64,000 nt of DNA from Verrucomicrobiota bacterium (lineage in GTDB: Bacteria; Verrucomicrobiota; Verrucomicrobiia; Limisphaerales; SXTU01). The notes under the pieces are model-generated. The model made no database searches, was not told the DNA's origin, and was given only the letters and a program-made list of their open reading frames with translations. Of the stretch, positions 29,086 to 45,886 are shown piece after piece (within the stretch, counting starts at the first letter, position 1; each line of letters opens with the position of its first letter). The DNA lies in NCBI GenBank assembly GCA_016871445.1, contig VHDH01000004.1:4435-68434 (forward strand), in the 5' to 3' direction. Both the position numbers and the translations under genes were made by a program.

Positions 29086-29139
29086 GTGAACCCGGGCCCA
29101 TTTCTGGGCGAGCACAACGAGCGTGTCGGAGCCTTTTCC

Positions 29140-30609: not shown

Positions 30610-30663
30610 CAGTGAGTGCGGTTGCGATATTGGTTTCAACGACGCGACCGTTTTGCACCACTA

Positions 30664-30703: not shown

Positions 30704-30781
30704 GAAGGATTCTTCAACAACAAGGGCAAAATTGCAACGATACCTCCCACGATTATCAGTTCGTTTACGCTTTGGTAACCT

Positions 30782-31750
30782 TCAACGAGGGACGGCTAAC
30801 ACGCGGAAGCCGAGATCGTCATCGTAACCCACGGGATAGAGAAAATCGCGCGAGCTGGCGGTGCATTGCGCAGGATGGTCATTCCATCCGCCGCCGCGGA
30901 ACACGCGGCCCACTGCTTTACCCGGGCCTTTCGGATCCTTCAGCGGGGCTTGGCCGTAGGCGGCGAACCAGTCCGCGCACCACTCCCTCACGTTGCCATG
31001 CATGTCATACAAGCCCCATGCGTTGGCCTTCTTCGTTCCCACCGGATGCGTGGACTTGCCTGAGTTGAGAATGAACCACGCGTGCTGGCCCAATTCCTCC
31101 TCTGCCGCGCCAAATGTGAAGCGCTCCAAACTGCCCGCCCGACAGGCGAACTCCCACTGGGCCTCCGTAGGCAGGGTGAAATTCCAATTGGTCTGCCGAG
31201 TGCCAAGCCGGGCAAGAAACAACTGGCACTTTTCCCAACTGACCCGCTCTACCGGGTGCCGAGGGTCCTGATACAAACTGGGATTGTCCCCCATGAGCGC
31301 CAGCCACTGAGCCTGTGTCACCTCGCAGCGGCCCAGAAAAAAGGGCTGGGTGAGCTTTACTTCATGCACCGGATACTCGGTCGTCGCGCCGTTTTCAGCA
31401 CCGCGCATAAACAGACCCGAGCGGATGAGCACAAAGTCCATGGTAAGACCTTGGCCTAGGTCCATCGACAACTCGCCCTTCGCAAGGCCAAAAGCCAGCG
31501 GAACAGCCGTCTGCTTCGGCTGAGGTTCGGGCACAGGAACCGACTGGGGAGCGGGGGCCAATTTCACTGGCTCGGAGGCGACGGGCGCTAACTGCGGAGC
31601 GGCTGATTTTCCCGCCGGTGGTGAACACCCTGCCCCGCCTAAGCCCACTGCAAAGGTAATAACGAGTCCCAACCACGCTCCGACGAACCTGTGCAAACTG
31701 CCACGCAGCGTGGTGCGCGGGTGCCGGCGGAGCGTATGAATCAGCACCAT
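30782..31750 (-). CDS. lipoprotein with an FGE-sulfatase (SUMF1) fold domain, probably not a true FGE
   Basis: Lipobox LGGAGCS, HPVERVSWEKCQLF, GLYDMHGNVREWCADW and FRGGGW. The C-x4-C catalytic pair is absent (only QCTASSRDF). Confidence 0.8.
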   Translation of the reverse strand: MVLIHTLRRHPRTTLRGSLHRFVGAWLGLVITFAVGLGGAGCSPPAGKSAAPQLAPVASEPVKLAPAPQSVPVPEPQPKQTAVPLAFGLAKGELSMDLGQGLTMDFVLIRSGLFMRGAENGATTEYPVHEVKLTQPFFLGRCEVTQAQWLALMGDNPSLYQDPRHPVERVSWEKCQLFLARLGTRQTNWNFTLPTEAQWEFACRAGSLERFTFGAAEEELGQHAWFILNSGKSTHPVGTKKANAWGLYDMHGNVREWCADWFAAYGQAPLKDPKGPGKAVGRVFRGGGWNDHPAQCTASSRDFLYPVGYDDDLGFRVLAVPR

Positions 31751-31885
31751 GAACGCCGCGCACCTACGCTGCTGTAAAAGTTTGGATTCAGTTTTCAATC
31801 TTAATACGACTACTTAATTCCCAGCCTCGGGTGTGTCTGCCGCCGGCCGCCTAGACTAAAAAAAACTGCAGTAAACGCCAGCCGA

Positions 31886-33487
31886 TTACTTTTCTTCCTT
31901 CTTGGCCGCGCCGCCGAGGGTGACATCAACGCCATATTTAAGGGAGAGATCCTGGTGTGCCTGGCCGGCCCACGAGGTATTGAGGTAAACCTTACAGACC
32001 GTCTTGAGAGTGCGGATGGCAGCCTCCTTGTCGCCCTTCGCCGCGTAGTGGCCGGCGATCTTGTATTGGGCCTCAGCGGCGGAGCTCTTGAAGAAGTTCA
32101 GCACGCCCACCAGGGTCTGGATCGCGACATCATGCTGTTTGAGGGAGCCTTGGCATTCAGCAATGCGAAAGAGGGATTGGGGCTCGCGGTTCGCTTGGTT
32201 GTAGCAGGCGATGGCTTCCTTGTATTGACCGGTCCGGTTGAAGACCTCGCCCAGCCGCCATTGAATCGCATCCGCATGTTGCGGGTGCTTGTTCAGCATC
32301 GCCTGATAAGCCTCGATGGTGCTCTTCCAATTATTTTCCTCGCCATACGTTTCGGCGATCTCGGTGTCAGCCACGTATTGGTTCTTTAGTTCACGGTAAA
32401 CGAGGCGAGCTTCCCCGCGTTTGCCGCTGGCCCGCAGGTAGGCGGCGTATTCGCCCCGAAAGGTGTCGTTGTCCGGGTGCTTTCTGGAGAGGGCGGCAAA
32501 GCGCTCCGTGGCGCGAGGCACATCGCCTGCATAGGCAAAGATTCGGGCGCACCAGTGCTCGATGGCTTTCTTCTCATCCGCGTCCGCCGTGGCCTGCTTT
32601 TCGATGAAGAGAACGGCGTTGGTGGCGATGGTGGTGCGGAGCTTCCGGCCCTTCTCGCCGTAGTAACTGGGAATGTGGTTTCCTTGGAGCGCGTCAGCAG
32701 TCCATTGGGCGAAGGTGAGCAGGTAATCCTTCTTGCGGGCGGATTGGATGAGTTCAAAGCCGCTGGCAATTTTGTTCTCAACGAGCCGGTGCATGAGCAC
32801 CCGATGCTGCGCGCCGCTGCGGAGGTTGTTGCCGGGATCCTGGTAGCTGCCGGTGGCCAAATACTCGATGTGGGGAAGCCACTTATCGGTTTTCTCAAGG
32901 CGCCAGTAAATTCGGCAGGCCTCGCTGCGGGCCAGCGCGCCGAAGTCATTGGTGGGCCACTTGGCGATGACCTTCTCGAAGGATTTCAAAGCCTCTTCAG
33001 CGTCACCGGTCTGCGTCTGGCAGACGCCGATGGAGTATTGCGCGCTGCCGGCGTCCACGGCGTCGGGAAAATAGTCAATCACGTTGCGGAACTCGCCGAT
33101 GGCGGTGTTCACTTGTCCGAGTCGGCGGGTGCATTCCGCGAACATGAGCTGGGCATAGGAGGCGACCTCGGACTTGGTGTGAAGCTGGAGGAAGAGCTCG
33201 TATTCCGAACGGGCGGACTTCCAGTTGCTCTGCTCGGCGTAACGTTCCGCGCGCGTAAGTTGGTGCCGTTCCTCCTCCGTGAGACGGACCCAGCGATCGG
33301 CGGCGAGCTTGGCGTGGGAGGAACCGACGGTCAGCAGCAGGGCGGCGAAAGCTCCAAATCCCAGGCTCCAAATCCCAAAGAAGTTCCAAGCTCCAAATCC
33401 CAAACGAGTCGGGCGAGACGGCTCGGATTTGGAGCTTGGAAGTTGGAGCTTCTTTGGCGCTGGGAATTTGGAATATGGAATTTTCAT
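31886..33487 (-). CDS. TPR-repeat protein (533 aa), last gene of the motor/TPR block
   Basis: Multiple TPR-like helical pairs (AEQSNWKSARSEYELFL, AIACYNQAN, AQYKIAGHYAAKGDKEAAIRTL). Its ATG overlaps the exbD-like stop (ATGA at 33484-33487). The first 45 or so codons lie in a palindromic repeat element, so the true start is uncertain. Confidence 0.75.
   Translation of the reverse strand: MKIPYSKFPAPKKLQLPSSKSEPSRPTRLGFGAWNFFGIWSLGFGAFAALLLTVGSSHAKLAADRWVRLTEEERHQLTRAERYAEQSNWKSARSEYELFLQLHTKSEVASYAQLMFAECTRRLGQVNTAIGEFRNVIDYFPDAVDAGSAQYSIGVCQTQTGDAEEALKSFEKVIAKWPTNDFGALARSEACRIYWRLEKTDKWLPHIEYLATGSYQDPGNNLRSGAQHRVLMHRLVENKIASGFELIQSARKKDYLLTFAQWTADALQGNHIPSYYGEKGRKLRTTIATNAVLFIEKQATADADEKKAIEHWCARIFAYAGDVPRATERFAALSRKHPDNDTFRGEYAAYLRASGKRGEARLVYRELKNQYVADTEIAETYGEENNWKSTIEAYQAMLNKHPQHADAIQWRLGEVFNRTGQYKEAIACYNQANREPQSLFRIAECQGSLKQHDVAIQTLVGVLNFFKSSAAEAQYKIAGHYAAKGDKEAAIRTLKTVCKVYLNTSWAGQAHQDLSLKYGVDVTLGGAAKKEEK
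33351..33473. repeat. TCCAA/TTGGA-rich palindromic repeat element
   Basis: GCTCCAAATCCCA occurs three times (33351, 33365, 33390). Arm 33375-33400 pairs with 33425-33457 as perfect 17-bp and 9-bp helices separated by a 7-nt bulge, with a 24-nt loop. Confidence 0.85.
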
Positions 33488-33891
33488 TTATCCACTTCCG
33501 TGGCGAGTACAATGGCCGCATCGCACTGGTTCACGATGTCCATGAGCTTGACCGCCGCGCCGTATTCCACGCCGCGATCAATGTTGATGACCACGGCGCG
33601 ATCCTTGGTGCCGACCAGTTTGGCGGTAATCCCAGCCTTGAGTTGGTCCCAGTTGGATTTTTCGCCGTTGAGGAAGACGTCCTTCTGCATGTTCAGCTGG
33701 ACGGTGACGCTCTTGTTCTCGGCGTTCTTGCTGGTGGCGGCCTTGGGCAACTTGAGGTCGATGCCGGTCACGTTCACAAACGTGGTGGCGACCATGAAGA
33801 TGATGAGCAGCACCAGGCTGATATCAATCATCGGGATGAAGTTGATGGCCGCAATCGGCTCATCCGAGTCGTCTTGAACATCCATTGCCAT
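33484..33891 (-). CDS. ExbD/TolR-family biopolymer transport protein
   Basis: INFIPMIDISLVLLIIFMV (TM with the conserved Asp) followed by a periplasmic domain. 135 aa from ATG 33891. Confidence 0.9.
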   Translation of the reverse strand: MAMDVQDDSDEPIAAINFIPMIDISLVLLIIFMVATTFVNVTGIDLKLPKAATSKNAENKSVTVQLNMQKDVFLNGEKSNWDQLKAGITAKLVGTKDRAVVINIDRGVEYGAAVKLMDIVNQCDAAIVLATEVDK

Positions 33892-33914
33892 AAGTTTCAG
33901 GGGCAAGATTACAA

Positions 33915-34541
33915 TTACTTCTGTGCGGATGGAAGTTGCTGCCGAAGATCGCGGTACGCCTGGAAGGCCTGCGATTCCAGCTCCAACGCCATATTCGAGA
34001 TAGCCTTGCTAAAATAGTTGTAAAACATCAGCGCCGGTATGGCGACGAGCAAACCCGTGGCCGTGGCGACCAGCGCCTCGGAGATTCCGGCGGCGATGAC
34101 GCTGGGACCGCCCATGCCCTGCGTGGCAATGTCAGAGAAGGCGGCGATGATGCCCTTACAAGTTCCGAATAGGCCAACGAACGGCGCGATGGAAGCGATA
34201 GTGGCTAACATCGGCAAGTATTGCTTCAGTCGCGACAATTCGCCGCGCAGCGTGAGCGCCATAACTCGTTCGGCATCGGCACTCTCGGCATCACGGCCCG
34301 AGGCGGCCTCAGCCAAGATCATCGCGGCCAGCGGCGACTCGCTTTGGCGGCAGCGTTCGAGCACCAGATCGTGCTGCTTTTTCTCCAAGGCAGTGGCGAT
34401 GTCCGTCCGCAACGCCGCTGTGGCCAAGCGGATTTGCTTAAAGAAGGCCAGGCGCTCCAGCACCACGCCGATGCTTACGATCGAGAGAAAGATGAGCGTG
34501 GCCATCGTCATCCCACCCGCAACTATCCATTCCCACAACAT
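33915..34541 (-). CDS. MotA/TolQ/ExbB-family proton channel
   Basis: 3 TMs; PFVGLFGTCKGII and SEALVATATGLLVAIPALMFYNYF are the family signature regions. Confidence 0.9.
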   Translation of the reverse strand: MLWEWIVAGGMTMATLIFLSIVSIGVVLERLAFFKQIRLATAALRTDIATALEKKQHDLVLERCRQSESPLAAMILAEAASGRDAESADAERVMALTLRGELSRLKQYLPMLATIASIAPFVGLFGTCKGIIAAFSDIATQGMGGPSVIAAGISEALVATATGLLVAIPALMFYNYFSKAISNMALELESQAFQAYRDLRQQLPSAQK

Positions 34542-34644
34542 AGGTTTCCTTTTGGTTAACAGTTCATTGACGCATCCAAGACAAAATCCGTGAAATCAAA
34601 TTTCCGGGGCATATTACCCAACGGTTCGACGAAACAGTTCCGGC

Positions 34645-35703
34645 TCATTTCTTCGGCCCTTTCCCGTCGAGCATCATCTTCCATTCGCTATAGCCAGCCA
34701 TCGCCTGCGCGAGGATGTTCACGCCTAGTTGGTAGGCCTGCTCGGCGGATTCTGCACTGGTCCCGCCGTGAGTGTCCTTCCAGGCATCGGAGATCGAGCC
34801 TTGATGGTAGAAGGCGACCCACCGGCCATCCTTTTTCCAGCCTAAGGCACGGGTGCCGCTATGCGCCCAAAGCGGCGGCGCGCCATTAAGCGGATACGGT
34901 GCTTGGAAGATGGGGTCGTCATCCGGAATCTCGACAGCGACTACCTCGGGCAGGACGGACTGCATCAACCGGAGGAAAACGCTGTGGAATTGGTTGCCGC
35001 CGTTGTCGGCGAAAATCATGCCGCGGTTGTCCAGCAGGTAACTGCGGACCGCCTTGATTTCCCGCTGCTCGAACCGGAAGGGATAGCTGCCCACCATGAA
35101 CACCACCGGCGGCGCGCGGCCCTTCACGTAGCGGCCCAACTCCGCCAGCGTGACATCCTGCGGGATGGTGGAGACGGGCATCTTGGCGCGGCGGCCAAAT
35201 TCCTTGGTCATGTTCTCATCGGCGCCGTTGCGAAGGTTGAAATCCCAGTTGCCGCCGTCGTAACGGACACGGACGAAGATAAAACGCGCGCCCTCGCGGC
35301 CAGCGGCGTAACCGGCGGGGCCGGCCCCTTCGCCCTGCCCGATCTTATATTCGTTGGCGGTGACCTCCTTGAGGTTGAGCGGGGTCAATTCCAGCGGCGG
35401 CACCTCGAAGACGACGGGGCTGTTCGGGTTCACCAGCACCCGCTTGCGCTGCACCTTTTTCACCTCGACCTTCATCTGCTTGATCATGGCCTTGGGCTTA
35501 CCGGAGCCCTTGACGAGATCGTAGGTCTTTTTGCAGCCAGGAATGAGCGGCATCAGGACAATCATCACCAACACACTGGCGTGGCCAAGGAACGACCAAG
35601 TAATGAAACGCCGCAGCCGGCCATGCTTGCCCTGCCAATACGCCGCATCGCGCCGGAAGGGATTCCAGACGCGGGAGGCAGGTTGGGGCGCAACGGGGGG
35701 CAT
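34645..35703 (-). CDS. single-TM protein with a periplasmic DUF4159-like (GATase1-like fold) domain
   Basis: ATG 35703 (the ORF-track start is a TTG). TM FLGHASVLVMIVLMPLI. FIFVRVRYDGGNWDF...PPVVFMVGSYPFRFEQREIKAVRSYLLDNRGMIFADNGG...DDDPIF...DGRWVAFYHQGSISDAW follows the DUF4159 pattern as I recall it. Confidence 0.7.
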   Translation of the reverse strand: MPPVAPQPASRVWNPFRRDAAYWQGKHGRLRRFITWSFLGHASVLVMIVLMPLIPGCKKTYDLVKGSGKPKAMIKQMKVEVKKVQRKRVLVNPNSPVVFEVPPLELTPLNLKEVTANEYKIGQGEGAGPAGYAAGREGARFIFVRVRYDGGNWDFNLRNGADENMTKEFGRRAKMPVSTIPQDVTLAELGRYVKGRAPPVVFMVGSYPFRFEQREIKAVRSYLLDNRGMIFADNGGNQFHSVFLRLMQSVLPEVVAVEIPDDDPIFQAPYPLNGAPPLWAHSGTRALGWKKDGRWVAFYHQGSISDAWKDTHGGTSAESAEQAYQLGVNILAQAMAGYSEWKMMLDGKGPKK

Positions 35704-35713
35704 CGAAGGGGAA

Positions 35714-35806
35714 ACGTCCAACGCTCAACGTTGAACTTCCAACTTCCAACAATACCGAACCGCAAGAACCCCAGTCCCTGAACGTTGAATGTTGAGCGTT
35801 GGACGT
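35714..35806. repeat. intergenic inverted repeat with 16-bp perfect arms, AACGTT palindromes and a GTTGGAA tandem in the loop
   Basis: ACGTCCAACGCTCAAC (35714-35729) pairs with GTTGAGCGTTGGACGT (35791-35806). TCAACGTTGA palindrome at 35725-35734. GTTGAGCGTT is duplicated at 35791 and 35805. The loop carries CTTCCAACTTCCAAC. Confidence 0.85.
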
Positions 35807-35813
35807 TGAGCGT

Positions 35814-36236
35814 TCACTTCAAATCCTTTAACAAATCGTCGTTCTTGGAGGAGAACGGGCTCTTGGGCAGGTCGCCGGGTTTGGCGATCTTGTCGATGCC
35901 CAAGGCTTTTTCCGCCTCGGCTTGGCGGTTGGTGGTGGCGGGCGTGGGCACAGCGGTGAGCGGACCGGAGGGGGGCGCGGCGGGAGCATTGGTCACGCCC
36001 ACAGGCGGCGCATTGGTGGCGGCCTTTGCGGCATCCTCGGCCTCTTTCTTCTTTAACGCGGCATCTTCGGCGGCAGCCTTGGCCTGCCGGGCGGCCTCGG
36101 CCTTTTGGTGGTTCATGTAGCTAAGGCCGCAGAGCGCACCGATGCCAAGCACGTGCAGAGCGGTGGACACACCGGTCCATTTCCAAAGCACTTTGAGTGG
36201 CACGGGAACGCGAACCTGATCAGGATTAGTTTGCAT
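35814..36236 (-). CDS. 140-aa single-TM protein with a TolA-like Ala/Lys/Glu-rich helix and a Pro-rich tail
   Basis: TM TGVSTALHVLGIGALCGLSY, then QKAEAARQAKAAAEDAALKKKEAEDAAKAA, then PPVGVTNAPAAPPSGPLTAVPTPA. No TonB or TolA C-terminal domain. Confidence 0.7.
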   Translation of the reverse strand: MQTNPDQVRVPVPLKVLWKWTGVSTALHVLGIGALCGLSYMNHQKAEAARQAKAAAEDAALKKKEAEDAAKAATNAPPVGVTNAPAAPPSGPLTAVPTPATTNRQAEAEKALGIDKIAKPGDLPKSPFSSKNDDLLKDLK

Positions 36237-36310
36237 GAGGAAAGGAGAGGGTCGTGAATAATTTCATGCGAGCGGGGGCGACCCAGCGGTCACACCCTCG
36301 TGTGGGTTGC

Positions 36311-39300
36311 TCATTGCTGCACGTCCCGGTCGGCAATGTTGACCATTTCGGGCAGCACCAATTTGCCACGCGCGAACTTCGCCGCATCGCTCTCGGGATA
36401 ATCCCAAGTGGCGCGCTTGTAGCGGCGGTAGGCAAACTCGAGCTGGTTGCCGCTGCGGTAGGACTCGCCGGCCCAGAAGATGGCATCGGGGCGGAACTTG
36501 CTGCGCGGGTAGTTCTCCACGAGCAGGTCAAACTCCTTGCCGGCTTTCTGGAACTGCTCGGCCTTGAACCAGCACTGGGCGGACCGGAACAGCATCCGCT
36601 CGGCCCATTCGTGCTGCGGGAAACGATCCACGAACTTTTTCGAGACCTCGGCCGCGGTCGGATACTCCTTCTTGTTGTAGAAGTATTCCGCGATGCGGAC
36701 GACGACGTTTGCCACGAGCGGGTTCTCCGGCCAGGTGTAGGCCAAGGTCACGTATTCCGCGCTGGCGGCGTCCATGTCATTCTTCTCCTCGTGGCACTGG
36801 CCCAGCTTGTATTGGGCATCCGGCGCAAGCGGGTGATCTGAATGGTTCTGGACGATGCGTTTGTAGTAGCTGATGGCCTCGTCGTATTTCTTCAACTCCT
36901 GCGCGAACTGGCCGAGCAGGTAATCCGTGCGGGCCTCGTATTGCTTGCTGGGGTAATCGTTGCTCAGTTCCTTGAGCAACTGCATGCCCTCGTTCAGCGC
37001 GTTGGTCGCGGCCGGTAGCTGCTTGAGCGCGCGGAAATTCTTGAACAGCTCGAAGTAAGCCTCGGCCATCCGGAACTGCGATTCGATGGCCACCTTCTCC
37101 GTCGCATACTTCTTCTCAAACACCAGCAGGTTGCCATCGGTGCCCTTCACCACGTTGATCATCTTCTCAAACTTCGCAGTCGCATCGGTCTTGCTGAGGT
37201 AGGTGAGGGTGATGGGGTCACCAAACCACCCCTCCATCCGGTCGTCGGCCGGCATGGGCTTTTCCCCGGCGACCAGCGGGAAGCTGCCGCTGAACTCGCC
37301 GCTGTGGCTCAAGGTCTCCTGCAGCTTGGCGGTGAACTTCTCGCCGCGCGGGCTGGTCAGGGTGACCTCCACGCTGTCCCGCTCATTCGAGGCGTCCGCG
37401 GTGAGATCCTTTACCACCACGAAAATCTTATCGCCGATGTAGAGGTTGGTGACTGGCTTGTCATAGCCACTGTCGGTGAACTCGACGCTGGCCGGCACAG
37501 ACAACCGGGCCTGATCCTTGAACTCCTTCTCACCCACTTTGTAGGTAAGCGTGATCACGTCCTGCCCATTGAGGTTCAGCACCGGCACCACATTGGCCAG
37601 TTGCTGCTCCCCCCCCCCGGTCGGGTTGCGGCGTCCCACCAACGAGCGCGTGTCACCGGGCTCCAGCACGATGGTCGGGGGTGAATCCTTGTCGCCCAAG
37701 TTCATGAAGATCTGCCCGACGAAGCGGCCGATCTCCAAGGCATCGTCCACTACTTTGCGTTTGGCCTGCTTGCCTCCGGCCAAGGAGGAAAGCGGGCAAA
37801 TGACCTCGACGGTGCTGCCCCCGGAGGTGGTGAGCGTGGCTTTGACTTCACTGAAGGAATCCTTGGCCGCCGCCGGGTCGATGATTTCAAACGTGAGAGG
37901 CGGGCGGAAGGCGACCGACTTGATGGCGGGGGCATTGGTGTCCAACGAGGAGGTGAACTCGAAGACCTCAGTGCCCGCCTTGTTGGCGATGGCGCGCGAT
38001 TGCACGAAGGCAACCATCACCTCACCGGGCGCAACGGCCTCCAAGTGCGTAGTCCGCAGCGTGGGCGCTCCAGGGTCGGTGTTCTGCTCATCGAGATACA
38101 TAGCCTCCAGCAAGGCACCAGGTGCCAGCTTAAAGCCGTTAGTGCGCTGCGGGGACCAGATGTCGAACTCCTTGGTGAACACACCCGTGAACGGCTCAGT
38201 CTCCGTGGCCTCCAATTTCACCGTCTCGCCGTCGGATACCTTGAGGGTAAACTTGACCTTGTCCCGCTTGTCCGTGGTGTCGGCATCGTAATCCGTCACC
38301 CGGATGATGACCCGTTGGCCAGGATCCACTCGGCGCACCTGCTTGATATAGGTGTTCGGAATCGATTGGCCAACGTTGGCTTTGAAGTCGTAAGCAATGA
38401 AACCAATCGTAGCATCAAAATAGGTGGCGACGATGTTCTGCGAGAGGTTGCGGGGCTTGCCCTGCGAAACCATGCTCGTCTCGTCCTCGTAGATGGCGGT
38501 GATGCGGTCACTCGGCGTGAGCCGTAGCGCGTCTACCGCTGCCACTTCAGTCTCGGTCTTGACGGGCAGCAGGACCGTCCCGGTAGCGTCAGTCACCTCG
38601 AACTCGGCGATGCGCGGTGCGGTGCCACTGAACTTCTCGATGAACAGCCGCACGTAGCGGCCTGAGGCGTTGGTGAGTTGGATGGTGGCAGCGGCAAAGT
38701 TGCCTGAATTTGTGGACGCGATGCGCGTGCGCTGGGCAGCGGTGGACCCGGTAAAGTTCGTGGTCGCCGCCACCGTGGTCCAGTCCGTGAGGTTGGTGGA
38801 CACCTGGATGGCATACTCGACGGGCAACTTGTCTTTGAAAACCCCGTCGTTGCTCCACTTGAGCGAGCCCAACTGTTTGTCCTGCTTAAGGTCCACGGCG
38901 ATGAACTTCGGCGCCCGACTGTCGTTCAGACCTTCCCACGCCGTCTTCGGATTATTGTCAATCGCCCGCACCGCCTCGTTGCCGGCCGAGCGGTCGCTGG
39001 CGAAGATGTTGGCCGCGATCTCCACCGTCGCAAGCGTGCCCCGGAAGATTCCTGTGTGCGGCCCCGTCTCGGTGAGGGTGGCGGTCACTTTGCTGCCACT
39101 CGAGGCAGAGACGAGCACCTTGATGGTGTCGGCGTCCTTGCTCACATCGCGATCGGCGTCCTTGACTTGAAGGTAGATATTATTGCCGGGCTTGAGGGAG
39201 TTGCCGCTGCGAAACTCCTGGCGGAACTCCAACCCGGCCTGTTTGCCTGAACGCTGCCGCTGCTCGCGCAGTTTCTCTTCAAAGCTTACTTCCTCCTCGT

Positions 39301-42300
39301 CTTTAATTTCCGTGGCCGAAAGCTTGAACTCCCCGTCAGTAGCGAGCCGGATGTTTGAGCGCGGCTTGGCGATGCTGGTGAACTGCTTCTTGAAATCATC
39401 CGGGTAATCGTAGGTGATGGTGTCGGAACCGTTGACTTGGAGGACATTGTCGCCCGCTTTCGGGTCACCTAGTTCAGTTGCCAGCTCGGCGCGGAAAAAC
39501 CCTTTGCCCGCTGAACCGCTCTCCAACCGCACCACTTCCCGATCGCCGCTGGTGGTCGTGACCACGACGGGCACGTAGCTCTGCCCGCGGCTGACCCCAA
39601 GGTCGGCATCCTGAATCACAATGTTCAGCGGCAGGCCGGGCGGATGCCATTGCTTGGCGTTGCTGCCAATCAGCCCAATGCTGCGGAGTAACATCAACTC
39701 GTCGCGGAAGCGGTTCTCCTGGCCGTAGAGCTCAGACAAGCGGTAGAGGATGCCGTCCGCCACGTCGCTCGAAGGCGCGAGGTCCATGACGTTGCGGAAG
39801 CGCGCCTTCGCGTCGTCCACGTCGCCGCGCTGCTGCGCGAGCACGCCGAGCAGAAACTCGCCCCGGCTTGCCGCCAGCTTGTCCTTCGACTTTGCCATCT
39901 TCTCGAAGACCTTCGCGGCATCCACATACATCTTCTGCTGAAGGTAGCACTCGCCGATGCGGAACTGTGCGTCCACGGCCTCCGCCGTCGTGGGGAAGCG
40001 ATTGAGCAACGAGGTGCATTCCGAGCGCGACAGGTCGTAACGCAGGGTCTTGAAGTAGTAGTCTGCCAGCGCCAGCTGGGTCTTGGCCTTCTCCTCGATG
40101 GGCACGACCGTCGAGGTTTCGTTGGCGATGACCCACCGGCGGAGAATCTTCTCCGCCAAATCGCGCGAGGCCTCGTCATCGCGTTGGAGCAGGCGGTCGG
40201 AAGTCCAGCGGATGTAGTCGGCGGGCAGCTTATCTTCGTGCTTGGCGAAGAGCGGCTCATTTGCCTGAAACGCCTTCCACGCGGCGATGGGGTCGCCCAT
40301 GCGCAGGCTCATGGCGGACTTAAGCAACGGAGCCCATTCAAGCTTCTCATCGATTTCGGCGGCAGAGAAGCCGTGCTTGTTGCTCAAGCTGAACAGCGCC
40401 TGACTCGCTTGCGCGCGCAGTTTTGCGTCCACGCCAGTGAAACGGTTCACCGCCGCGCGCAGCACGAGGCCAGATAGCTCGGGCTTGCCGAGCGAGGCGA
40501 GCTGCTGCGCCCACGGGATGTAATAGTTGGCGAGCCAGTTCCCGTCGTTTGGATTCACGCCCACGGTGATGCGGTTAACCGTGTGCGTGCAGTCGAGAGC
40601 CTTGCCTATCTGCGCCTGCCGCACGAGCAAGGCTGGCATCCAGTGTCCCCAAACCTGCACCGCGCCGAGCGACGTGATGATGTCCGCGAGGAACTGCACG
40701 TCTGCCGGCTTGGCGTCCTCGGGCTTCGCACTGGCAACGGTCTGCAAGAGAGTTTCGCCCCACTGCCACGGCACGCTGCCGGCAGTCCACGCGAAGTCAG
40801 CTGGCCGCGCGGCAGCGAGCTGAAGCGCCTTCGCTGCGGAGTTCGTGTCCTTCTTTTCTGTAAGCAGCAAGTGGCCGCGCAAGAGTTGAATGCCGCCTTG
40901 CTGCGGGCCACGATTGGCACGGGCAAGATACGCGTCGAGCGCCGGCAGCGCCCAGTCGGCCGCATTGGTGAACGAGGTGGCGATGGTGTGCAACGTGGCG
41001 GGCTCGCTGGCCGTCGGCTGCGCGGCCTTCAAAGCGGCGAGCAAGGTCTGCTTCGCCGCGTCGTTCTGCCCGAGCGTGGCCTGCATCGCGCCGATGCGGC
41101 GCTGATATTCGAGCAAACCCGGGTGGGCGGGATACAAGGCCGCCAACTTCTCATACTCCGCGCTCATGTCCGTGGCGGAGCGGCCCTGCTCGGCGACGGT
41201 GAACGTGTATTGGCGGACATGGCTCCAGCCATCGTGCGGCCAGTAGCTGCCGCCGGATTTCCCCACGGCGTCGTCCACCAGTGCAACCACGTCCTTGTTC
41301 TTCGGCGCACCAAGCTGGTAGGCGCAGAGCGAAAGGTAATACAGCACGCCGGACGCGCCCGGATGCTTGGCCAGAATCTGCTTCGCCACGTTTAAGCCCT
41401 TCTCGTAATGGCCCGCTTGATACATCGCTGCCAACACGTCGACGCCACCTTCGAGCGCGAGCGCCGGACCGCCTTCGAGATACTTCGGCAGAAGCGACTC
41501 GCCGGCGTTGCTGGCCTTCGCCCACTGACTGGCGGTGCGCGCCGTCTGGAAGTTCGCCAGCGCCGGCTTCACCAAGTCATGCTGCCGCACGCGCAGAAGC
41601 AACTCGTTGAGCTTCTTCTGCTCGCCCGGGAAGGCCCGCGGCGGGAAGTGCGGCTTAAATGCCGTGTCCACCGAGGCCAGCGCGCCGCCCCAAGGAATCG
41701 TGCGCGTGAGATACTTCTCCAAGGCCGGCAGCACCGCGTCGAACTTCGCCACGGACTTGGCCCGCGTTTCGTCCAGCGTCTTTTGTGCCGCGTCAGCCTT
41801 GACCTGGGCTTTGTCGAGCGCATCTTTGGCGGCGGCAACGGCTTTCTCGGCGGCTTCCTTCGCGGCGGGTGGCGTCTGCGCTTTCTTTGCGTCGGCGGTG
41901 GCCTTTTGGTGGTTCACCTTGGCCGTCTTCAGCGCCTCCGCGGCGGCGTCGTCCGCCTTGGTGGCCTCAGGAAATCCGGCAAAGGCGGCGTCGGCCGCGA
42001 GTTTGATGACCTGCGGCCCGTAGCTGGACATGCCGTCCTTGTCGAGGAACTGCGCAGCGAACTTGCCGACTGCCGCGTAATCCGACCGATTCCACGCGGC
42101 TTGCGTGAGCCGATAGGAAATTTCTCCCTGCGCGGCAAGGCGGAGGCTGAGGTTCTTCTGCGCGGCAAGCTTGGGCGCGGTTTCCTCCAGCAACTTCACG
42201 TGCGCCTCGGGACGCTTGAGCAGGCTGGTCATTTCGGCATGGCGGTCCCACGCGGTGCCGCTCGCAGGGTCTATCGCCAGCAACGCGATGAGCTGCTTCT

Positions 42301-43282
42301 CTGCCTCCTCAAACTGATTCGCACGGCGCAGCGCGTAGGCGTGCGCAAGGCGGACGCGCGGCCCCCACGCGGAGTTGGCGAGCTTCGGCAGGAGTTGACC
42401 GCCGAGCGCGATGGCCTGGTTGGTCAACGCCAGGTCCGGCAGCCATTCGAGCGCGAGCACTTGGAACTGCGGGTCGCCGGTGAGCTTCGCGAATTCGTCC
42501 GCGAGCGGCGCGATGAGTGCGTAGCCGTTGGTGTGGCGGCGCAGCGCCTCGATGGCAGAGTTCGCAATGCTGGCGTTCAACGTGAAGGTCGGCAGCTTGC
42601 GCTCCGCCTCGTAGGCCACGAGCGCCGCGGCGTGATCGCCCGCCGCCGAGTGGTGGTAAAACTCCGTGAACGCCGCGCCAGCGGGGTCCTGCGGAAAGGC
42701 GGCCTTGAAGCGATGTGCCGCATCCGCCGCGCCGCGATGGTCATTCTGCGCCGCGCGCATGCGATACAACCGCAACAAGAAATCGCGCGCGCGCGGATCC
42801 TGCGGGAAGGACTCACCAAAGTCCGCAAGGCAGCGCTCGACCATGTTGTTGTTGCTCAGGAGCGACGCGGCGCGAACGCAATCCGCCAACGCGTCGGCGC
42901 GCTCGGGCACGGCGGGCATCTGCTCGGCAATGGTGCGGTAAAGCGAAATGGCCTCGGCAATGTTTCCACCGGCTTCGCGGAGCCGGGCGTTCAGGTAAGC
43001 CATCGCGTTCTTCTGCGGATCGTTGGGCGACTCGCGCAGGAAGCGCTCAACGGTCTGCTGGGCCGAGATGAGCCGGCCAGCGGCAACCTGTGCGCGGGCC
43101 AGTTCAACAGTCGCCGCAGGCTTGCTCGCCCCGCCCGCGCGGACGGCGGCTTCGAGTTGGGTGATGGCCTCATCCAGCTTGCCCGCCTGCACGAGCGCCT
43201 TGGCTTCATCGAGCGCGGCGGCCCGGGCGGTGAGAGAAGCCGCTAGGAGCGCGGCGAGGGGGAATAGGGAAGGGATTTTCAT
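36311..43282 (-). CDS. giant (2323 aa) secreted TPR / beta-repeat / discoidin-domain protein
   Basis: Signal MKIPSLFPLAALLAASLTARAA (ATG 43282; the ORF-track start is 96 nt upstream). About 1150 aa of N-terminal TPR/helical repeats include an Ala/Lys coiled stretch. Five beta-type modules and an F5/8-type-C-like domain follow. The C-terminal roughly 330 aa are TPR (YEARTDYLLGQFAQELKKYDEAISYYKRIV...). Confidence 0.88.
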   Translation of the reverse strand: MKIPSLFPLAALLAASLTARAAALDEAKALVQAGKLDEAITQLEAAVRAGGASKPAATVELARAQVAAGRLISAQQTVERFLRESPNDPQKNAMAYLNARLREAGGNIAEAISLYRTIAEQMPAVPERADALADCVRAASLLSNNNMVERCLADFGESFPQDPRARDFLLRLYRMRAAQNDHRGAADAAHRFKAAFPQDPAGAAFTEFYHHSAAGDHAAALVAYEAERKLPTFTLNASIANSAIEALRRHTNGYALIAPLADEFAKLTGDPQFQVLALEWLPDLALTNQAIALGGQLLPKLANSAWGPRVRLAHAYALRRANQFEEAEKQLIALLAIDPASGTAWDRHAEMTSLLKRPEAHVKLLEETAPKLAAQKNLSLRLAAQGEISYRLTQAAWNRSDYAAVGKFAAQFLDKDGMSSYGPQVIKLAADAAFAGFPEATKADDAAAEALKTAKVNHQKATADAKKAQTPPAAKEAAEKAVAAAKDALDKAQVKADAAQKTLDETRAKSVAKFDAVLPALEKYLTRTIPWGGALASVDTAFKPHFPPRAFPGEQKKLNELLLRVRQHDLVKPALANFQTARTASQWAKASNAGESLLPKYLEGGPALALEGGVDVLAAMYQAGHYEKGLNVAKQILAKHPGASGVLYYLSLCAYQLGAPKNKDVVALVDDAVGKSGGSYWPHDGWSHVRQYTFTVAEQGRSATDMSAEYEKLAALYPAHPGLLEYQRRIGAMQATLGQNDAAKQTLLAALKAAQPTASEPATLHTIATSFTNAADWALPALDAYLARANRGPQQGGIQLLRGHLLLTEKKDTNSAAKALQLAAARPADFAWTAGSVPWQWGETLLQTVASAKPEDAKPADVQFLADIITSLGAVQVWGHWMPALLVRQAQIGKALDCTHTVNRITVGVNPNDGNWLANYYIPWAQQLASLGKPELSGLVLRAAVNRFTGVDAKLRAQASQALFSLSNKHGFSAAEIDEKLEWAPLLKSAMSLRMGDPIAAWKAFQANEPLFAKHEDKLPADYIRWTSDRLLQRDDEASRDLAEKILRRWVIANETSTVVPIEEKAKTQLALADYYFKTLRYDLSRSECTSLLNRFPTTAEAVDAQFRIGECYLQQKMYVDAAKVFEKMAKSKDKLAASRGEFLLGVLAQQRGDVDDAKARFRNVMDLAPSSDVADGILYRLSELYGQENRFRDELMLLRSIGLIGSNAKQWHPPGLPLNIVIQDADLGVSRGQSYVPVVVTTTSGDREVVRLESGSAGKGFFRAELATELGDPKAGDNVLQVNGSDTITYDYPDDFKKQFTSIAKPRSNIRLATDGEFKLSATEIKDEEEVSFEEKLREQRQRSGKQAGLEFRQEFRSGNSLKPGNNIYLQVKDADRDVSKDADTIKVLVSASSGSKVTATLTETGPHTGIFRGTLATVEIAANIFASDRSAGNEAVRAIDNNPKTAWEGLNDSRAPKFIAVDLKQDKQLGSLKWSNDGVFKDKLPVEYAIQVSTNLTDWTTVAATTNFTGSTAAQRTRIASTNSGNFAAATIQLTNASGRYVRLFIEKFSGTAPRIAEFEVTDATGTVLLPVKTETEVAAVDALRLTPSDRITAIYEDETSMVSQGKPRNLSQNIVATYFDATIGFIAYDFKANVGQSIPNTYIKQVRRVDPGQRVIIRVTDYDADTTDKRDKVKFTLKVSDGETVKLEATETEPFTGVFTKEFDIWSPQRTNGFKLAPGALLEAMYLDEQNTDPGAPTLRTTHLEAVAPGEVMVAFVQSRAIANKAGTEVFEFTSSLDTNAPAIKSVAFRPPLTFEIIDPAAAKDSFSEVKATLTTSGGSTVEVICPLSSLAGGKQAKRKVVDDALEIGRFVGQIFMNLGDKDSPPTIVLEPGDTRSLVGRRNPTGGGEQQLANVVPVLNLNGQDVITLTYKVGEKEFKDQARLSVPASVEFTDSGYDKPVTNLYIGDKIFVVVKDLTADASNERDSVEVTLTSPRGEKFTAKLQETLSHSGEFSGSFPLVAGEKPMPADDRMEGWFGDPITLTYLSKTDATAKFEKMINVVKGTDGNLLVFEKKYATEKVAIESQFRMAEAYFELFKNFRALKQLPAATNALNEGMQLLKELSNDYPSKQYEARTDYLLGQFAQELKKYDEAISYYKRIVQNHSDHPLAPDAQYKLGQCHEEKNDMDAASAEYVTLAYTWPENPLVANVVVRIAEYFYNKKEYPTAAEVSKKFVDRFPQHEWAERMLFRSAQCWFKAEQFQKAGKEFDLLVENYPRSKFRPDAIFWAGESYRSGNQLEFAYRRYKRATWDYPESDAAKFARGKLVLPEMVNIADRDVQQ
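37609..37618 (-). repeat. G10 homopolymer (C10 on the plus strand) inside the giant gene
   Basis: Plus strand reads ctgctCCCCCCCCCCggtc. It encodes Gly-Gly-Gly in NPTGGGEQQ, at about residue 1889 of 2323. Confidence 0.95.
38590..39010 (-). other. F5/8 type C (discoidin)-like domain within the giant protein
   Basis: AVRAIDNNPKTAWEG...PKFIAVDLKQDKQLGSLKW...GRYVRLFIEKFSGTAPRIAEFEV carries the canonical W..., [FW]hxVDL and hxEhEV landmarks. Confidence 0.8.
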
Positions 43283-43328
43283 ACGACAATTCAGAGCGGG
43301 GTTGGGTGGGGCGGGCCGACGCAGGCGA

Positions 43329-45542
43329 CTAGTTGGCGGTGCCACCAGCGGTTTTGCGCTTCTCGATCGCTTCCACAATCTTCTGCGCGTTCGCCACCAT
43401 CTTGCTGTTGGGATAGGTGGAGATGAGCTGGTTGAACTTCACCACCGCCTCGTCGAGTTTCTTCATTTTCACGAGGCAGCGGCCGTAGTTGTAAAGCACC
43501 ACGTCGATGAACTTGCTGTCCTGATACTGCTGGAGCGCCTCCTCGTAGAGGTCCAGCGCGCGGGTGAAGTCCTCCTTGCTGTAGTAATACTCCGCCATCT
43601 TCGAGAGTGCGTCGCCGGCCTGGTTCGAGTTCGGGAATTTCTCGAAGCAGCCCTTAAATGCCAAGAACGCTTCGTCGTAATAGATTTTGTTTTTGGTCGT
43701 GGTGCCGAGTTCCTCGAAACACTCGCCAATGGCGTATTGGGCGGCAGGCGCAAGCGGCGAGTTCTTCAGCGCGGACAACCGGCGAAAGACGCCGATAGCC
43801 TCCTGAAACTTGCCCTGTTTCTGGCTGACTTGGCCCATGAGCAGGAGGGCATCGTCCACGAATGGGCTTTCCGGGAAGCGGCGTTGGAGTTCGAGACACA
43901 TTTGCGCGGCGCGCCCGAGGTCATCCATTGCGTAGTAAATCTTCCACATCTGCACGTAGGTCTGCTCGAGGAGTCGCTGGTTGAGCGCGCCATAACTGCG
44001 CGCGACCTGCTCGGTCTCCGTGAGGGCCTGCTTGTATTTGTCCGTGGCCTGCTTGGTGAGGCCCAGTTCCTTGTAGATGTTGCCAATGTTCTTCAGGGCC
44101 TCGCTGGTCTTGAGCGCGGTTTTGAACTTCAATTCCTCGTCATTGATTTTGGCATTGGCCACCTGAAGCGGGTTCAAGTTTCCCTCAATCACCCGGGCAG
44201 TCGTGCGACGAGCCACCGGCTTGGCCTCCAGGCTGATTTCGTCCTGATACTCAATCTCCAGCAGGTCACCGACCTGCGCGACCACGGCGCCAGGGTTGGG
44301 CGTCTCGCCTTGGCGGGCCATCTGGATGGTGCCAACGAAGACACCGGTGTGAACCGCTCCGCCCGGGGCCGCGCCGTCCAGGGGTTTTTCCACCAGCTTG
44401 ACCTTCTTCTCGTCAATCACCTTGAAAACGGGCTCGGCTTTCTCCAGCGCCTCAAGCGCGGCGGTGGCATTGGCGGCGGGTTTCTCAGCTTTTTCGGTAT
44501 CCGGATTCTCCTCCACGGCGCGCTTGGTGCGGACGATGACTTCAATCTCGTCGGACTTGCCCGAGATGTCGCGGTCCGAGTCCTGGATGAGAAGGAAGGA
44601 GGGTTTGTCCAGCACCACGGCCCCGACGGCCTCCGCGAACGCTCCGTCCACGACCTTCACGCGAGCGTTGCCCACCACCTTGATGTCTTTGGTGCGAACG
44701 ACGTTGAGCTGGGCCTGTGCGGTTTGCTTGTCGGTGTAGGTGACCTTGATTTTGTCAGTGCCGATGAGTTGGACGACGCCGTCGCCAGGCTTGGCATCCC
44801 CCAACTGCGTGCGGAGGCTGCCCATGAGGATGGTCGCCCCGGGGGTAACCGGAAAGCAGGTGACGGACTCCTTGTCGCCCGCGGTGGTCTCGATGCTGAC
44901 GACCACCCCGGACTCACTGGCTTGGGCGGACAGATCCTTGTCATCAATCTTCACGTAGAGCCGCTTGCCGGCGTCGAGCTTCTCGGCCTCCTGCGCCTGC
45001 GGGTCAATCGAGGTGCCGACATTCTTGAAGGCCTCGATGGCGTTCGCGAAGCGGCCCATCTTAAAGTGCGCTTGGCCGATGTAATAATAGGCGTCATTGG
45101 AGTAAGGCGTGCCCGGATGCTGCTTGATGACCTTGCGCAACTCGCCGAACGCCTCCTCAAACTTGCCCATCTCGAAGAAGCAGATGCCCACCTGCAGGCT
45201 CGCGTCCCCGCGCTGATCGTCATCCTTGTTCTCCTCCACGGCCACCCGGCGGAACTGGTCCAGCGCGAGATCGAACTTCTTTTCCTTAAGGAACTGCTTG
45301 CCCATCTTGAGCCGCGCCAGGAAGCGCCAGCGGGAGATTGGGTAGCGGTCGATCACCGCCTTGTAGAGGTCCATGGCCGCGGGCAGTTCGCCGGCCTCGA
45401 ACCGCGCGTCCCCCGCATCAATGAGCGCCTTGGCCTTCTTGTCATCCACCAAGTTCGCCGCGCCACCGCCGACCTGCGCGTGGCCGAACGGCTGACTGTG
45501 GATGACCACCGCAACACCCAGCGCCAAAATCAATTTCCTCAT
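43329..45542 (-). CDS. secreted TPR protein (737 aa) carrying two copies of the same beta-type module as the giant protein
   Basis: Signal MRKLILALGVAVVIHSQPFGHAQ (ATG 45542). TPR pairs at both ends (YYIGQAHFKMGRFANAIEAFKNV; VLYNYGRCLVKMKKLDEAVVKFNQLI). The central modules end in KVTYTDK and IEYQDE. Confidence 0.88.
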   Translation of the reverse strand: MRKLILALGVAVVIHSQPFGHAQVGGGAANLVDDKKAKALIDAGDARFEAGELPAAMDLYKAVIDRYPISRWRFLARLKMGKQFLKEKKFDLALDQFRRVAVEENKDDDQRGDASLQVGICFFEMGKFEEAFGELRKVIKQHPGTPYSNDAYYYIGQAHFKMGRFANAIEAFKNVGTSIDPQAQEAEKLDAGKRLYVKIDDKDLSAQASESGVVVSIETTAGDKESVTCFPVTPGATILMGSLRTQLGDAKPGDGVVQLIGTDKIKVTYTDKQTAQAQLNVVRTKDIKVVGNARVKVVDGAFAEAVGAVVLDKPSFLLIQDSDRDISGKSDEIEVIVRTKRAVEENPDTEKAEKPAANATAALEALEKAEPVFKVIDEKKVKLVEKPLDGAAPGGAVHTGVFVGTIQMARQGETPNPGAVVAQVGDLLEIEYQDEISLEAKPVARRTTARVIEGNLNPLQVANAKINDEELKFKTALKTSEALKNIGNIYKELGLTKQATDKYKQALTETEQVARSYGALNQRLLEQTYVQMWKIYYAMDDLGRAAQMCLELQRRFPESPFVDDALLLMGQVSQKQGKFQEAIGVFRRLSALKNSPLAPAAQYAIGECFEELGTTTKNKIYYDEAFLAFKGCFEKFPNSNQAGDALSKMAEYYYSKEDFTRALDLYEEALQQYQDSKFIDVVLYNYGRCLVKMKKLDEAVVKFNQLISTYPNSKMVANAQKIVEAIEKRKTAGGTAN

Positions 45543-45886
45543 GAGACGTAATGCATTTTTACCCGAAACTTCCGTGAACCTTCTAGCGACTTCATTGTGC
45601 CGGATGCTATTCAGCTTTCCCGGTGCCGGTCGAGGAAGCGTTGAGCGGCTCTGGAAAGGCAATCCGCGCGCGCTGCTCGTCACGGTGACTGTGCGCGTGA
45701 CTCGGCGGCAGCCGGCTTTCAACCACTGTTCCCAGTCCACCAGAAAGAGGCCCAGGCAGGCTCCGAAGGAATGCTCCGGAATGATAGGCGGGCTTCCTCG
45801 TCACTTTTTTCGAATCGGAAATTCTTCGCTGGCGGGCAGGAAACAGATTCCCTCATCCTTACGCCGTGCCGAAGAAAACCGTTGCC

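Follow-up and report, generated by a model that had tools for sequence, protein, structure and literature searches.

The locus and its seven genes

The DNA considered here (the window) is a stretch of 64,000 nucleotides (nt) from contig VHDH01000004.1 of a Verrucomicrobiota bacterium (assembly GCA_016871445.1). Positions 31886-45542 of the window are occupied by seven co-directional open reading frames (ORFs) on the minus strand, which encode an ExbB/ExbD-type motor, two single-pass membrane proteins and three large proteins built on tetratricopeptide repeats (TPRs), one of them a giant of 2323 amino acids (aa). A previous reading made from the sequence alone (the sequence-only reading) had described these genes as an operon with short gaps or overlaps and had assigned them to families. 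An ORF check located all seven exactly where that reading had placed them, separated by 23-110 nt except where two of them overlap by ATGA, and its family calls (PF01618, PF02472, PF13709, F5_F8_type_C and the TPRs) were all matched in Pfam. The genes are as follows:

43329..45542, minus strand: TPR-737 gene, predicted exported scaffold
36311..43282, minus strand: giant gene, 2323 aa, predicted exported scaffold
35814..36236, minus strand: small gene, 140 aa, putative headless TolA-like protein
34645..35703, minus strand: DUF4159 gene, 352 aa, putative TonB-like transducer with a DUF4159 head
33915..34541, minus strand: ExbB/TolQ-type gene, 208 aa, predicted proton-channel subunit
33484..33891, minus strand: ExbD/TolR-type gene, 135 aa, predicted stator subunit
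31886..33487, minus strand: TPR-533 gene, predicted exported TPR protein

The intergenic gaps in this order are 46, 74, 110, 103 and 23 nt, and the last junction, between exbD and the TPR-533 gene, is the ATGA overlap, because of which TPR-533 is predicted to be translationally coupled to exbD. The chosen start codons (ATG at 45542, 43282, 36236, 35703, 34541, 33891 and 33487) appear sensible for all seven genes, and the residues that follow the first two of them, MRKLILALGVAVVIHSQPFGHAQ in TPR-737 and MKIPSLFPLAALLAASLTARAAALDE in the giant protein, are signal-peptide-like by manual reading. A promoter and terminator scan of positions 28800-47000 found no excess over shuffled sequence and was uninformative on operon structure.

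Conservation of the gene set in two phyla

Relatives of the locus were collected from the DUF4159 protein, with one genome scanned per species, which gave at least 530 relatives. The best 80 came from two phyla, Verrucomicrobiota (Limisphaerales, Chthoniobacterales, Opitutaceae, Akkermansiaceae and Verrucomicrobiaceae) and Planctomycetota (Pirellulales, Planctomycetaceae and Phycisphaerae). When the six-frame ORFs of 85 related loci were searched with the window proteins, ExbB was found beside the DUF4159 gene in 49 of the 51 testable loci, that is, those with enough flank; the corresponding counts were 45 of 48 for a TPR533-like gene and 30 of 32 for the giant gene, an association far beyond chance. 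Of the TPR partners, the TPR-533 gene kept its linkage most consistently throughout the family, and an orthologue of TPR-737 also occurs in relatives.

Gene order in locus L001, whose DUF4159 protein is 70% identical to that of the window, is as in the window. More distant loci are arranged as ExbB-ExbD-ExbD-small-DUF4159-TPR-TPR-giant (L002, 47% identity), TPR-giant-ExbB-ExbD-small-DUF4159-TPR (L004, 41%) and, in Planctomycetota, giant-TPR-TPR-ExbB-ExbD-ExbD-small-DUF4159 (L005, 36%). Akkermansiaceae have the order ExbB-ExbD-ExbD-small-DUF4159-TPR, and a cultured Haloferula (L087) has all eight genes, packed or overlapping. Down to 32-36% identity, the TPR and DUF4159 genes stayed linked to the motor despite the rearrangement of their order between clades. 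Because the set was retained through rearrangement across two phyla, its distribution offers strong evidence that the seven genes would work as one functional unit. No consistent family of extra partners was present among 78 flanking genes of the related loci, and, the flanks being unconserved, the unit therefore appears to consist of these genes. Only one locus lacked every partner: at L003:10001-11389, no motor or TPR gene lies within 10 kb of a DUF4159 gene with a His-free type of membrane anchor (see below), which adjoins a DUF2330 gene.

The sequence-only reading had proposed an ExbB/ExbD stator with a non-canonical, conserved set of TPR and discoidin partners, and this proposal is supported by the synteny in two phyla: the TPR and DUF4159 genes were kept with the motor, and neither tonB nor tolA-tolB-pal was ever beside the motor in orthologous loci. 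Its further statement that no canonical partner is visible stands in part. TonB_C, TolB, Pal/OmpA and TonB-dependent receptor domains were found neither in the operon nor in about 37 other window ORFs scanned with Pfam (shorter ORFs were left out), and TolB and Pal were likewise absent from every related locus inspected. What must be amended is that the three TPR proteins carry units of CpoB/YbgF type and that two of the proteins have predicted anchors of TonB/TolA type.

A stator related to, but distinct from, those of Tol and Ton

The ExbB-type protein matched MotA_ExbB (PF01618) in Pfam with E = 8e-32 and 110 bits against a cutoff of 22.9, and the ExbD-type protein matched PF02472 with E = 1.5e-27 and 96.6 bits. 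Every NCBIfam equivalog cutoff was nevertheless missed. For the ExbB-type protein, scores were 125.5 bits for tolQ (cutoff 221) and 92 for exbB (cutoff 206), whereas the ExbD-type protein scored 57-63 bits over three ExbD models with cutoffs of 123-216 and 78.5 bits for tolR (cutoff 127.3). Comparison with PDB structures placed the first slightly nearer TolQ (76 bits) than ExbB (65 bits) and the second nearer ExbD (48 bits) than TolR (24 bits).

The channel Thr/Glu motifs are retained, with GLFGT...GISEALvATAtGL aligning to transmembrane helices 2 and 3 (TM2/TM3) of Escherichia coli TolQ, and a transmembrane Asp, D23 (in PMIDISLVLL), is aligned with the ExbD Asp in 7ajq. By both of its subunits, the motor is predicted to be a member of the MotA/TolQ/ExbB-MotB/TolR/ExbD stator family that is neither Tol nor Ton.

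A small protein with a TolA-like anchor and a conserved C-terminal peptide

TonB and TolA share a motif in their membrane helix, SHLS, which in TonB consists of S16, H20, L27 and S31. The 140-aa protein, for which no Pfam family was matched, has a single N-terminal transmembrane helix with S24, H28, L35 and S39, and these offsets of +4, +11 and +15 reproduce the full spacing of the SHLS motif as described in PMC12204202. The helix is followed by an Ala/Lys/Glu-rich segment, which is probably helical by composition, then by a Pro-rich spacer and finally by the C-terminal peptide LGIDKIAKPGDLPKSPFSSKNDDLLKDLK-COOH. In an alignment of 19 orthologues, S-x3-H occurs in nine of the ten sequences of the window clade; it is also present in L002 and L004, and the L005 protein has A-x3-H, with Ala in place of the Ser.

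All 19 sequences, those of the Planctomycetota and Akkermansiaceae types among them, retain the C-terminal peptide. Where TolA has a globular domain III, the protein has only this conserved peptide of 30 residues. A conserved free C-terminus encoded beside three TPR proteins suggests that this peptide docks into a TPR domain of the CpoB/YbgF type.

Two variants of the small protein deserve mention. In planctomycetes it is longer, at 264-303 aa (L005:9059-9970), and has an N-terminal, zinc-ribbon-like cytoplasmic segment (CxC...CxxC) that is absent from the window protein. A hypothetical protein of Ca. Auribacter fodinae, listed in the supplement of PMC12204202 and unassigned there, has an S-x3-H helix and a C-terminus reading ...NILKQWDDLEKKK (also given as ...PEPLNSNLENNILKQWDDLEKKK), and its gene adjoins a TPR gene. 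It resembles the window protein, and the small-protein family may therefore reach beyond the sampled phyla of the Planctomycetota-Verrucomicrobiota-Chlamydiota (PVC) group.

A DUF4159 head on a TonB-like anchor

The second single-pass protein matched DUF4159 (PF13709) with E = 5e-28 and 98.3 bits against a cutoff of 25.9, over profile positions 2-201 of 202. An AlphaFold2 (AF2) model built from a 57-sequence alignment, with a predicted local distance difference test score (pLDDT) of 81.5, has a transmembrane helix at residues 29-53, which includes S37-x3-H41, and an alpha/beta/alpha domain at 140-345. Just after the helix, a short strand (residues 59 and 64-65) falls on a Y61...G66 motif whose Tyr and Gly are invariant in 57 of 57 sequences from all clades, and from there a Lys/Pro-rich disordered linker runs from about 70 to 135, with pLDDT below 50 at 75-88 and 106-119. 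As modelled, this succession of helix, short strand, disordered linker and globular head corresponds to the three-part plan of TonB and TolA and includes the strand that Williams-Jones et al. (PMC12204202) define as the 'motor box'.

A Foldseek search with the head returned the DUF4159 crystal structure 4i66 as the best match (E = 4e-11, TM-score 0.82), followed by glutamine-amidotransferase domains. A vWA (von Willebrand factor A) domain was matched only weakly (vWF A1, E of about 0.2, TM-score of about 0.3), and the vWA fold was accordingly rejected for the head. The model therefore points to a class-I glutamine-amidotransferase-like fold rather than a TonB or vWA domain. Four polar residues of the head, R145, D233, D262 and H300, are invariant in the 57 sequences, and H281, D306 and H312 are invariant or nearly so. 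The Cys nucleophile is absent, the elbow reading FADNGGG. The sole paper found to mention DUF4159 is a general description of the Pfam database.

The anchor differs between clades. S-x3-H in the DUF4159 anchor is conserved across the window clade and also occurs in L002, L004 and L005. In contrast, the largest clade, formed by Planctomycetota and Akkermansiaceae with about 40 motor-linked loci, has a His-free anchor, 'QS...SYS', and its small protein is also without His; loci of this clade usually have two ExbD paralogues. These approximately 40 loci refute S-x3-H in the DUF4159 anchor as a marker of motor linkage. The figure comes from a raw pattern count of 44 negative loci, about ten of which were unscorable since the post-helix landmark was missing; raw matches that fall outside the helix, such as SQKLH and SRKLH, were excluded as false positives. 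Since the Y61/G66 strand is invariant in both clades while the His varies, contact through the periplasmic domain of ExbD may be the conserved mode of coupling and the helix-groove contact the variable one.

Some DUF4159 proteins of Akkermansiaceae and Planctomycetota, such as that at L051:9602-11020, have an N-terminal extension of about 120-280 residues before the anchor helix, with several additional hydrophobic, probably membrane-spanning segments in it. These proteins total 470-640 aa, compared to 352 aa in the window.

Three TPR proteins with beta-modules and a discoidin module

All three TPR proteins matched many Pfam TPR families and exceeded the 90.1-bit cutoff of TIGR02795, the curated CpoB/YbgF TPR model in NCBIfam, with scores of 96.1 for TPR-533, 135.4 for the giant protein and 145.7 for TPR-737 (taken as an 803-aa ORF); they also resemble BamD/YfiO in NCBIfam. 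With the full-length CpoB model PRK10803, however, they scored only 30-70 against 383, the match being limited to the TPR unit, and they do not appear to be CpoB orthologues.

Within TPR-737, two beta-sandwich modules (residues 188-273 and 308-436) lie between an N-terminal and a C-terminal TPR block, the blocks being of the CpoB/YbgF and BamD/YfiO types. Alignment of the giant protein with its orthologues divides it into a variable N-terminal TPR solenoid of about 970 aa and a strongly conserved C-terminal part of about 1350 aa, the latter comprising about five beta-modules of about 90 residues each and a terminal TPR block of the CpoB/YbgF type. The module, which is common to the giant protein and TPR-737, has the signature v-v-D-x-D-x-D ... 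GD-x-E ... ETG-x-x-TG-x-F-x-G. Searches with it were largely negative: Foldseek found nothing below E = 0.025 for the fold modelled with AF2 from seven window copies (pLDDT 72), the sequence gave only a sub-threshold hint of MG2 in Pfam, and a PDB profile search of these regions was empty. As modelled, the module remains a generic beta-sandwich.

Inserted within the second copy of the beta-module in the giant protein is a discoidin module, matched by F5_F8_type_C in Pfam at residues 1462-1582 of the 2355-aa ORF (E = 2.7e-10). A profile of giant-protein orthologues searched against the PDB recovered CpoB (6g5s, at 9e-12) and the CBM32 modules 2rva, 4zz5 and 4a4a, the latter as matches to the discoidin module, which thus resembles sugar-binding modules. 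The discoidin module is kept in distant orthologues of the giant protein, with PA14 instead in L005.

Ten planctomycete loci have, after the TPR533-like gene, an extra gene for a lipoprotein of about 550 aa (L037:12708-14366, and also L032, L035, L039, L048, L056, L057, L059, L068 and L069). By sequence inspection, it has an FVGGCSS lipobox-like N-terminus, a HEAT-repeat-like helical middle and a discoidin-like C-terminus. This protein is clade-specific, and the window has none.

Comparison with known motor systems

Like the Ton system, the cluster has an ExbB/ExbD-type stator with the conserved Asp, and its DUF4159 protein has a TonB-like three-part architecture. Unlike Ton, it misses the exbB and exbD equivalog cutoffs and is without TonB_C in any of the seven proteins, and no TonB-dependent receptor was present in the window or among the 78 flanking genes of related loci, which is as far as that statement extends. 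The likeness to Tol-Pal comprises a TolQ-like ExbB, an SHLS anchor and a domain II-like segment that recall TolA, and CpoB/YbgF-type TPR units above cutoff. The differences are the missing TolA domain III, TolB and Pal, the missed TolQ/TolR equivalog cutoffs, and TPR proteins that are 2-9 times larger than CpoB and have beta-modules and a discoidin module. A third comparison is with the Agl-Glt system of Myxococcus, in which a motor of the TolQ/TolR family works with TPR-rich periplasmic proteins and TonB-like anchors. Here NCBIfam similarity to GltC, GltE and Tgl is weak (E = 2e-3 to 6e-8; 17-32 bits, with cutoffs at 225-450), and the cluster has no further Glt components linked to it.

A closer parallel is the set of SHLS-anchored, non-TonB 'vWA' transducers that Williams-Jones et al. 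(2025, Mol Biol Evol, PMC12204202) predicted beside tolQ, tolR and TPR genes in PVC bacteria, with a type locus in Tichowtungia aerotolerans and no phenotype known. The two share a layout, with ExbB/TolQ-like, ExbD/TolR-like and TPR genes accompanied by single-pass proteins, and an anchor plan of S-x3-H helix, motor-box strand, disordered linker and non-TonB head. The DUF4159 protein was nevertheless rejected as a version of the Tichowtungia transducer: BLASTP between the two gave E = 3.7, the Tichowtungia protein has no Pfam match, and its 107 homologues are without PF13709. The Tichowtungia locus as a whole has only motor and generic TPR similarity to the window and encodes nothing homologous to the small protein, the giant protein or the beta-module. 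On these grounds, the window cluster falls in the class of the 'vWA' transducer loci as a distinct family. It is a distinct variant of a kind of system recognized only in 2025, related versions of which are already in the literature.

The Tichowtungia locus (L086; CP047593.1, 3743679-3765109) also contains a 781-aa vWA protein, TPR proteins of 904 and 938 aa, and proteins of 110 and 262 aa, both of which have a signal-peptide-like hydrophobic N-terminus. Its scaffold set is parallel, and non-homologous, to that of the window.

A phenotype, namely mucin uptake and use, is attached to just one system of this kind, the mucin utilisation locus MUL1 of Akkermansia muciniphila (Amuc_0543-0548; Davey et al. 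2023, as cited in PMC12570417, PMC12418764 and PMC13174399). According to these papers, mul1A mutants cannot use mucin (PMC12570417), MUL genes are needed for intracellular mucin accumulation (PMC12418764), and nine carbohydrate-active enzymes (CAZymes) associate with Mul1A. The annotated run of genes is Amuc_0543 (hypothetical), Amuc_0544/Mul1A (hypothetical), a small hypothetical protein, ExbD/TolR, a hypothetical protein and MotA/TolQ/ExbB. Compared by annotation and gene order only, MUL1 is thus an ExbB/ExbD operon without TonB whose order parallels the Akkermansiaceae version of the cluster. In contrast to the cluster, its partner proteins are annotated 'hypothetical' rather than DUF4159, and no giant gene lies upstream of exbB; A. 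muciniphila was not among the best 120 DUF4159 matches.

A proposed machine and its possible outputs

The gene set, the domain identities, the motor residues in the window, the anchor motifs, the head fold and the conserved linkage are established. We propose, with a probability of roughly 60%, that the seven genes encode a single PVC-specific machine that is driven by the proton motive force (pmf), spans the periplasm and most likely handles glycan polymers. For the anchor-stator coupling, the peptide-TPR docking, the localization of the scaffold and the output, we infer the following arrangement. An ExbB/ExbD-type 5:2 stator in the inner membrane would turn proton flow into mechanical work, and two single-pass proteins, one headless and TolA-like and the other TonB-like with a DUF4159 head, would dock on it in the fashion of TonB and TolA. 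The C-terminal peptide of the headless protein would plug into a TPR domain of the CpoB/YbgF type, and both anchors would pull or reposition an exported scaffold composed of TPR-737, the 2323-aa giant protein, which would present its discoidin/CBM32-type sugar-binding module, and TPR-533. As its output, the machine would use this energy to handle a glycan-containing polymer, either in the periplasm or at the outer membrane. That this is a pmf-driven machine in which the stator acts through the small and DUF4159 proteins on the exported TPR scaffold is the part of this scheme that we hold to be quite probable. The term 'orphan', which the sequence-only reading had applied to the motor, should accordingly be dropped, as the 140-aa and DUF4159 proteins, with their S-x3-H anchors and the TonB-like AF2 model, are likely transducers of the TonB/TolA type.

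Glycan handling is favored by the CBM32 and PA14 modules, the discoidin-like lipoprotein of ten planctomycete loci, the MUL1 precedent and the selfish uptake of polysaccharides by PVC bacteria. Several results weigh against the proposed machine or its output. The constancy of the discoidin module argues against substrate-specific uptake of the kind served by polysaccharide utilization loci, and no consistent CAZyme or envelope theme was present among the 78 flanking genes. According to one paper, aquatic Akkermansiaceae show no MUL1 synteny, yet their genomes do carry the window-type cluster. With the invariant polar residues of its head, DUF4159 may act as an enzyme instead of a grip. Finally, the anchors of the motor-linked Planctomycetota/Akkermansiaceae clade are His-free, and docking of the SHLS type can therefore not serve as the universal coupling mode.

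Two more specific outputs, TonB-independent capture and import of glycans in the manner of MUL1 and envelope maintenance in the manner of Tol-Pal, we rate as roughly level, each of them possible and tentative. In the former, the cluster would be orthologous to MUL1, its motor powering the passage of polysaccharide or glycoprotein through the outer membrane to the periplasm ('selfish uptake'), with binding modules and enzymes arranged by the TPR scaffolds. The MUL1 gene order (ExbB, hypothetical, ExbD, small hypothetical, Mul1A, Amuc_0543) parallels that of Akkermansiaceae, and this view is further favored by the mul1A mutant and mucin-accumulation phenotypes and by the nine CAZymes found with Mul1A; CBM32 or PA14 modules lie in the cluster, glycoside hydrolases adjoin some loci (L001, L002 and L004 among those inspected), and selfish uptake by PVC bacteria is known from the literature. 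Set against this are the annotation of Mul1A and Amuc_0543 as 'hypothetical' and not DUF4159, the lack of a giant gene in MUL1, the reported absence of MUL1 synteny from the very aquatic family members that have the cluster, the position of A. muciniphila outside the best 120 DUF4159 matches, the constant lectin module and the lack of any outer-membrane channel gene linked to the cluster. In the latter, the cluster would be the PVC counterpart of Tol-Pal, or its missing TolQRA-CpoB half, with the headless TolA-like protein and the CpoB-type TPR scaffolds linking the motor to the coordination of peptidoglycan and outer membrane during growth or division and the discoidin module binding a constant self-glycan such as peptidoglycan. 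The best NCBIfam and PDB matches of ExbB are to TolQ, the TPR proteins pass the CpoB/YbgF model and match BamD/YfiO, the giant-protein profile matches CpoB 6g5s, and the small protein has a segment like TolA domain II. Neither the architecture nor the discoidin module changes between the two phyla, the window flanks are housekeeping genes, and neighbours elsewhere are heterogeneous. Moreover, the supplement of PMC12204202 lists Planctomycetes as lacking pal, and Lentisphaerae and Kiritimatiella as having tolB-pal with the remark 'No TolA found'. A Tol-like role is nevertheless difficult to reconcile with the lack of a linked TolB, Pal or OmpA-like peptidoglycan-binding domain in any inspected locus, with an ExbD nearer ExbD than TolR, with the wide margins by which tolQ and tolR cutoffs were missed, and with the absence of the CpoB architecture from the TPR proteins; the binding of peptidoglycan by the discoidin module is itself putative.

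The remaining alternatives seem to us less probable. It is doubtful that the DUF4159 protein is a membrane-tethered periplasmic enzyme whose TonB-like anchor is incidental, leaving only the 140-aa protein to couple to the motor. The class-I amidotransferase fold, the polar residues invariant in 57 sequences, the absence of the anchor His in most clades and the motor-less DUF4159 gene in L003 are consistent with an enzyme, but the Y61/G66 strand motif is invariant in all clades, the architecture is TonB-like, linkage to ExbB/ExbD is near-universal, and the elbow has no Cys nucleophile. Very unlikely, in our view, is an apparatus for gliding or adhesion of the Agl-Glt type, in which the motor would drive surface adhesins through TPR-rich periplasmic proteins. 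To our knowledge, many host lineages of the cluster are not known to glide, and no Glt outer-membrane barrel, GltG/J-type TonB_C protein or MglA-type regulator was linked in the inspected loci and their flanks. Discoidin domains can mediate adhesion, and Williams-Jones et al. (PMC12204202) speculatively proposed gliding for the 'vWA' transducers; the similarity to GltC, GltE and Tgl, however, lies far below the family cutoffs, which leaves the 'surface-directed' and 'motility' readings offered by the sequence-only reading with no specific support. Returning to glycan handling, its broadest form would make the cluster a general TonB-independent pmf engine for glycan 'selfish uptake' in Planctomycetes and Verrucomicrobia, with MUL1 as a reduced derivative, the DUF4159 head as a new force-transducing and possibly catalytic module, and a headless TolA coupled by its C-terminal peptide in a TPR domain. 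Such an extension is unlikely in full, if somewhat less so than the incidental anchor.

Understanding of ExbB/ExbD-type motors is confined to those partnered by TonB, TolA or Glt proteins. The cluster would be a third or fourth partner set for such motors, conserved as a unit over two large, ecologically important phyla whose members with the cluster include cultured, genetically tractable relatives. It supplies a concrete parts list: a pair of different anchors, of which one bears a new head fold, and three scaffolds, among them one with a lectin module. This list makes testable both macromolecule import by PVC bacteria without the usual TonB-dependent transporters and the coordination of outer membrane and cell wall in Pal-less Planctomycetes. 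The locus would also give DUF4159 a function, and homology with the MUL1 proteins, if true, would tie the cluster to an experimentally shown uptake phenotype.

Neighbouring genes and other features of the window

The cluster is flanked by ordinary chromosomal genes for arginine, lysine and purine biosynthesis and a Kup transporter. The names borne by close homologues put the organism in the Limisphaerales (Verrucomicrobiota). Base composition is even over the whole window, which, together with the lack of a near match in PLSDB, led us to reject a plasmid origin.

Genes with a formylglycine-generating enzyme (FGE)-sulfatase (SUMF1-like) domain lie on both sides of the cluster, at 30782-31798 (minus strand) and 46982-48130 (plus strand). 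They are not retained beside the cluster in relatives, with the sole exception of an FGE-domain match about 1.3 kb downstream in L009. Divergent from the 5' end of the operon is a gene for an HTH_11-WYL-WCX transcriptional regulator (45866-46861, plus strand), whose neighbouring position is not conserved in relatives and which is therefore probably not a dedicated regulator of the cluster. A gene of the phosphate-selective porin O/P family (29140-30639, minus strand), on the same strand and two genes downstream of TPR-533, is likewise not conserved beside the cluster.

Long ORFs of 466-842 aa run antisense to the TPR genes at 43023-45551, 41408-43246 and 32477-33877 (all plus strand); we take these to be shadow ORFs typical of DNA of about 60% GC and not genes. 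Six further ORFs of 365-794 aa had no Pfam match at E <= 1e-5 (E <= 1e-3 in the case of 27474-28883) and are candidate genes: 274-1812, 3102-5486, 11694-12791, 27474-28883, 53167-54339 and 55275-56483. Elsewhere in the window, two paralogues of the 3-keto-disaccharide hydrolase family (PF06439) lie in tandem on the minus strand at 14260-14970 and 15004-15732.

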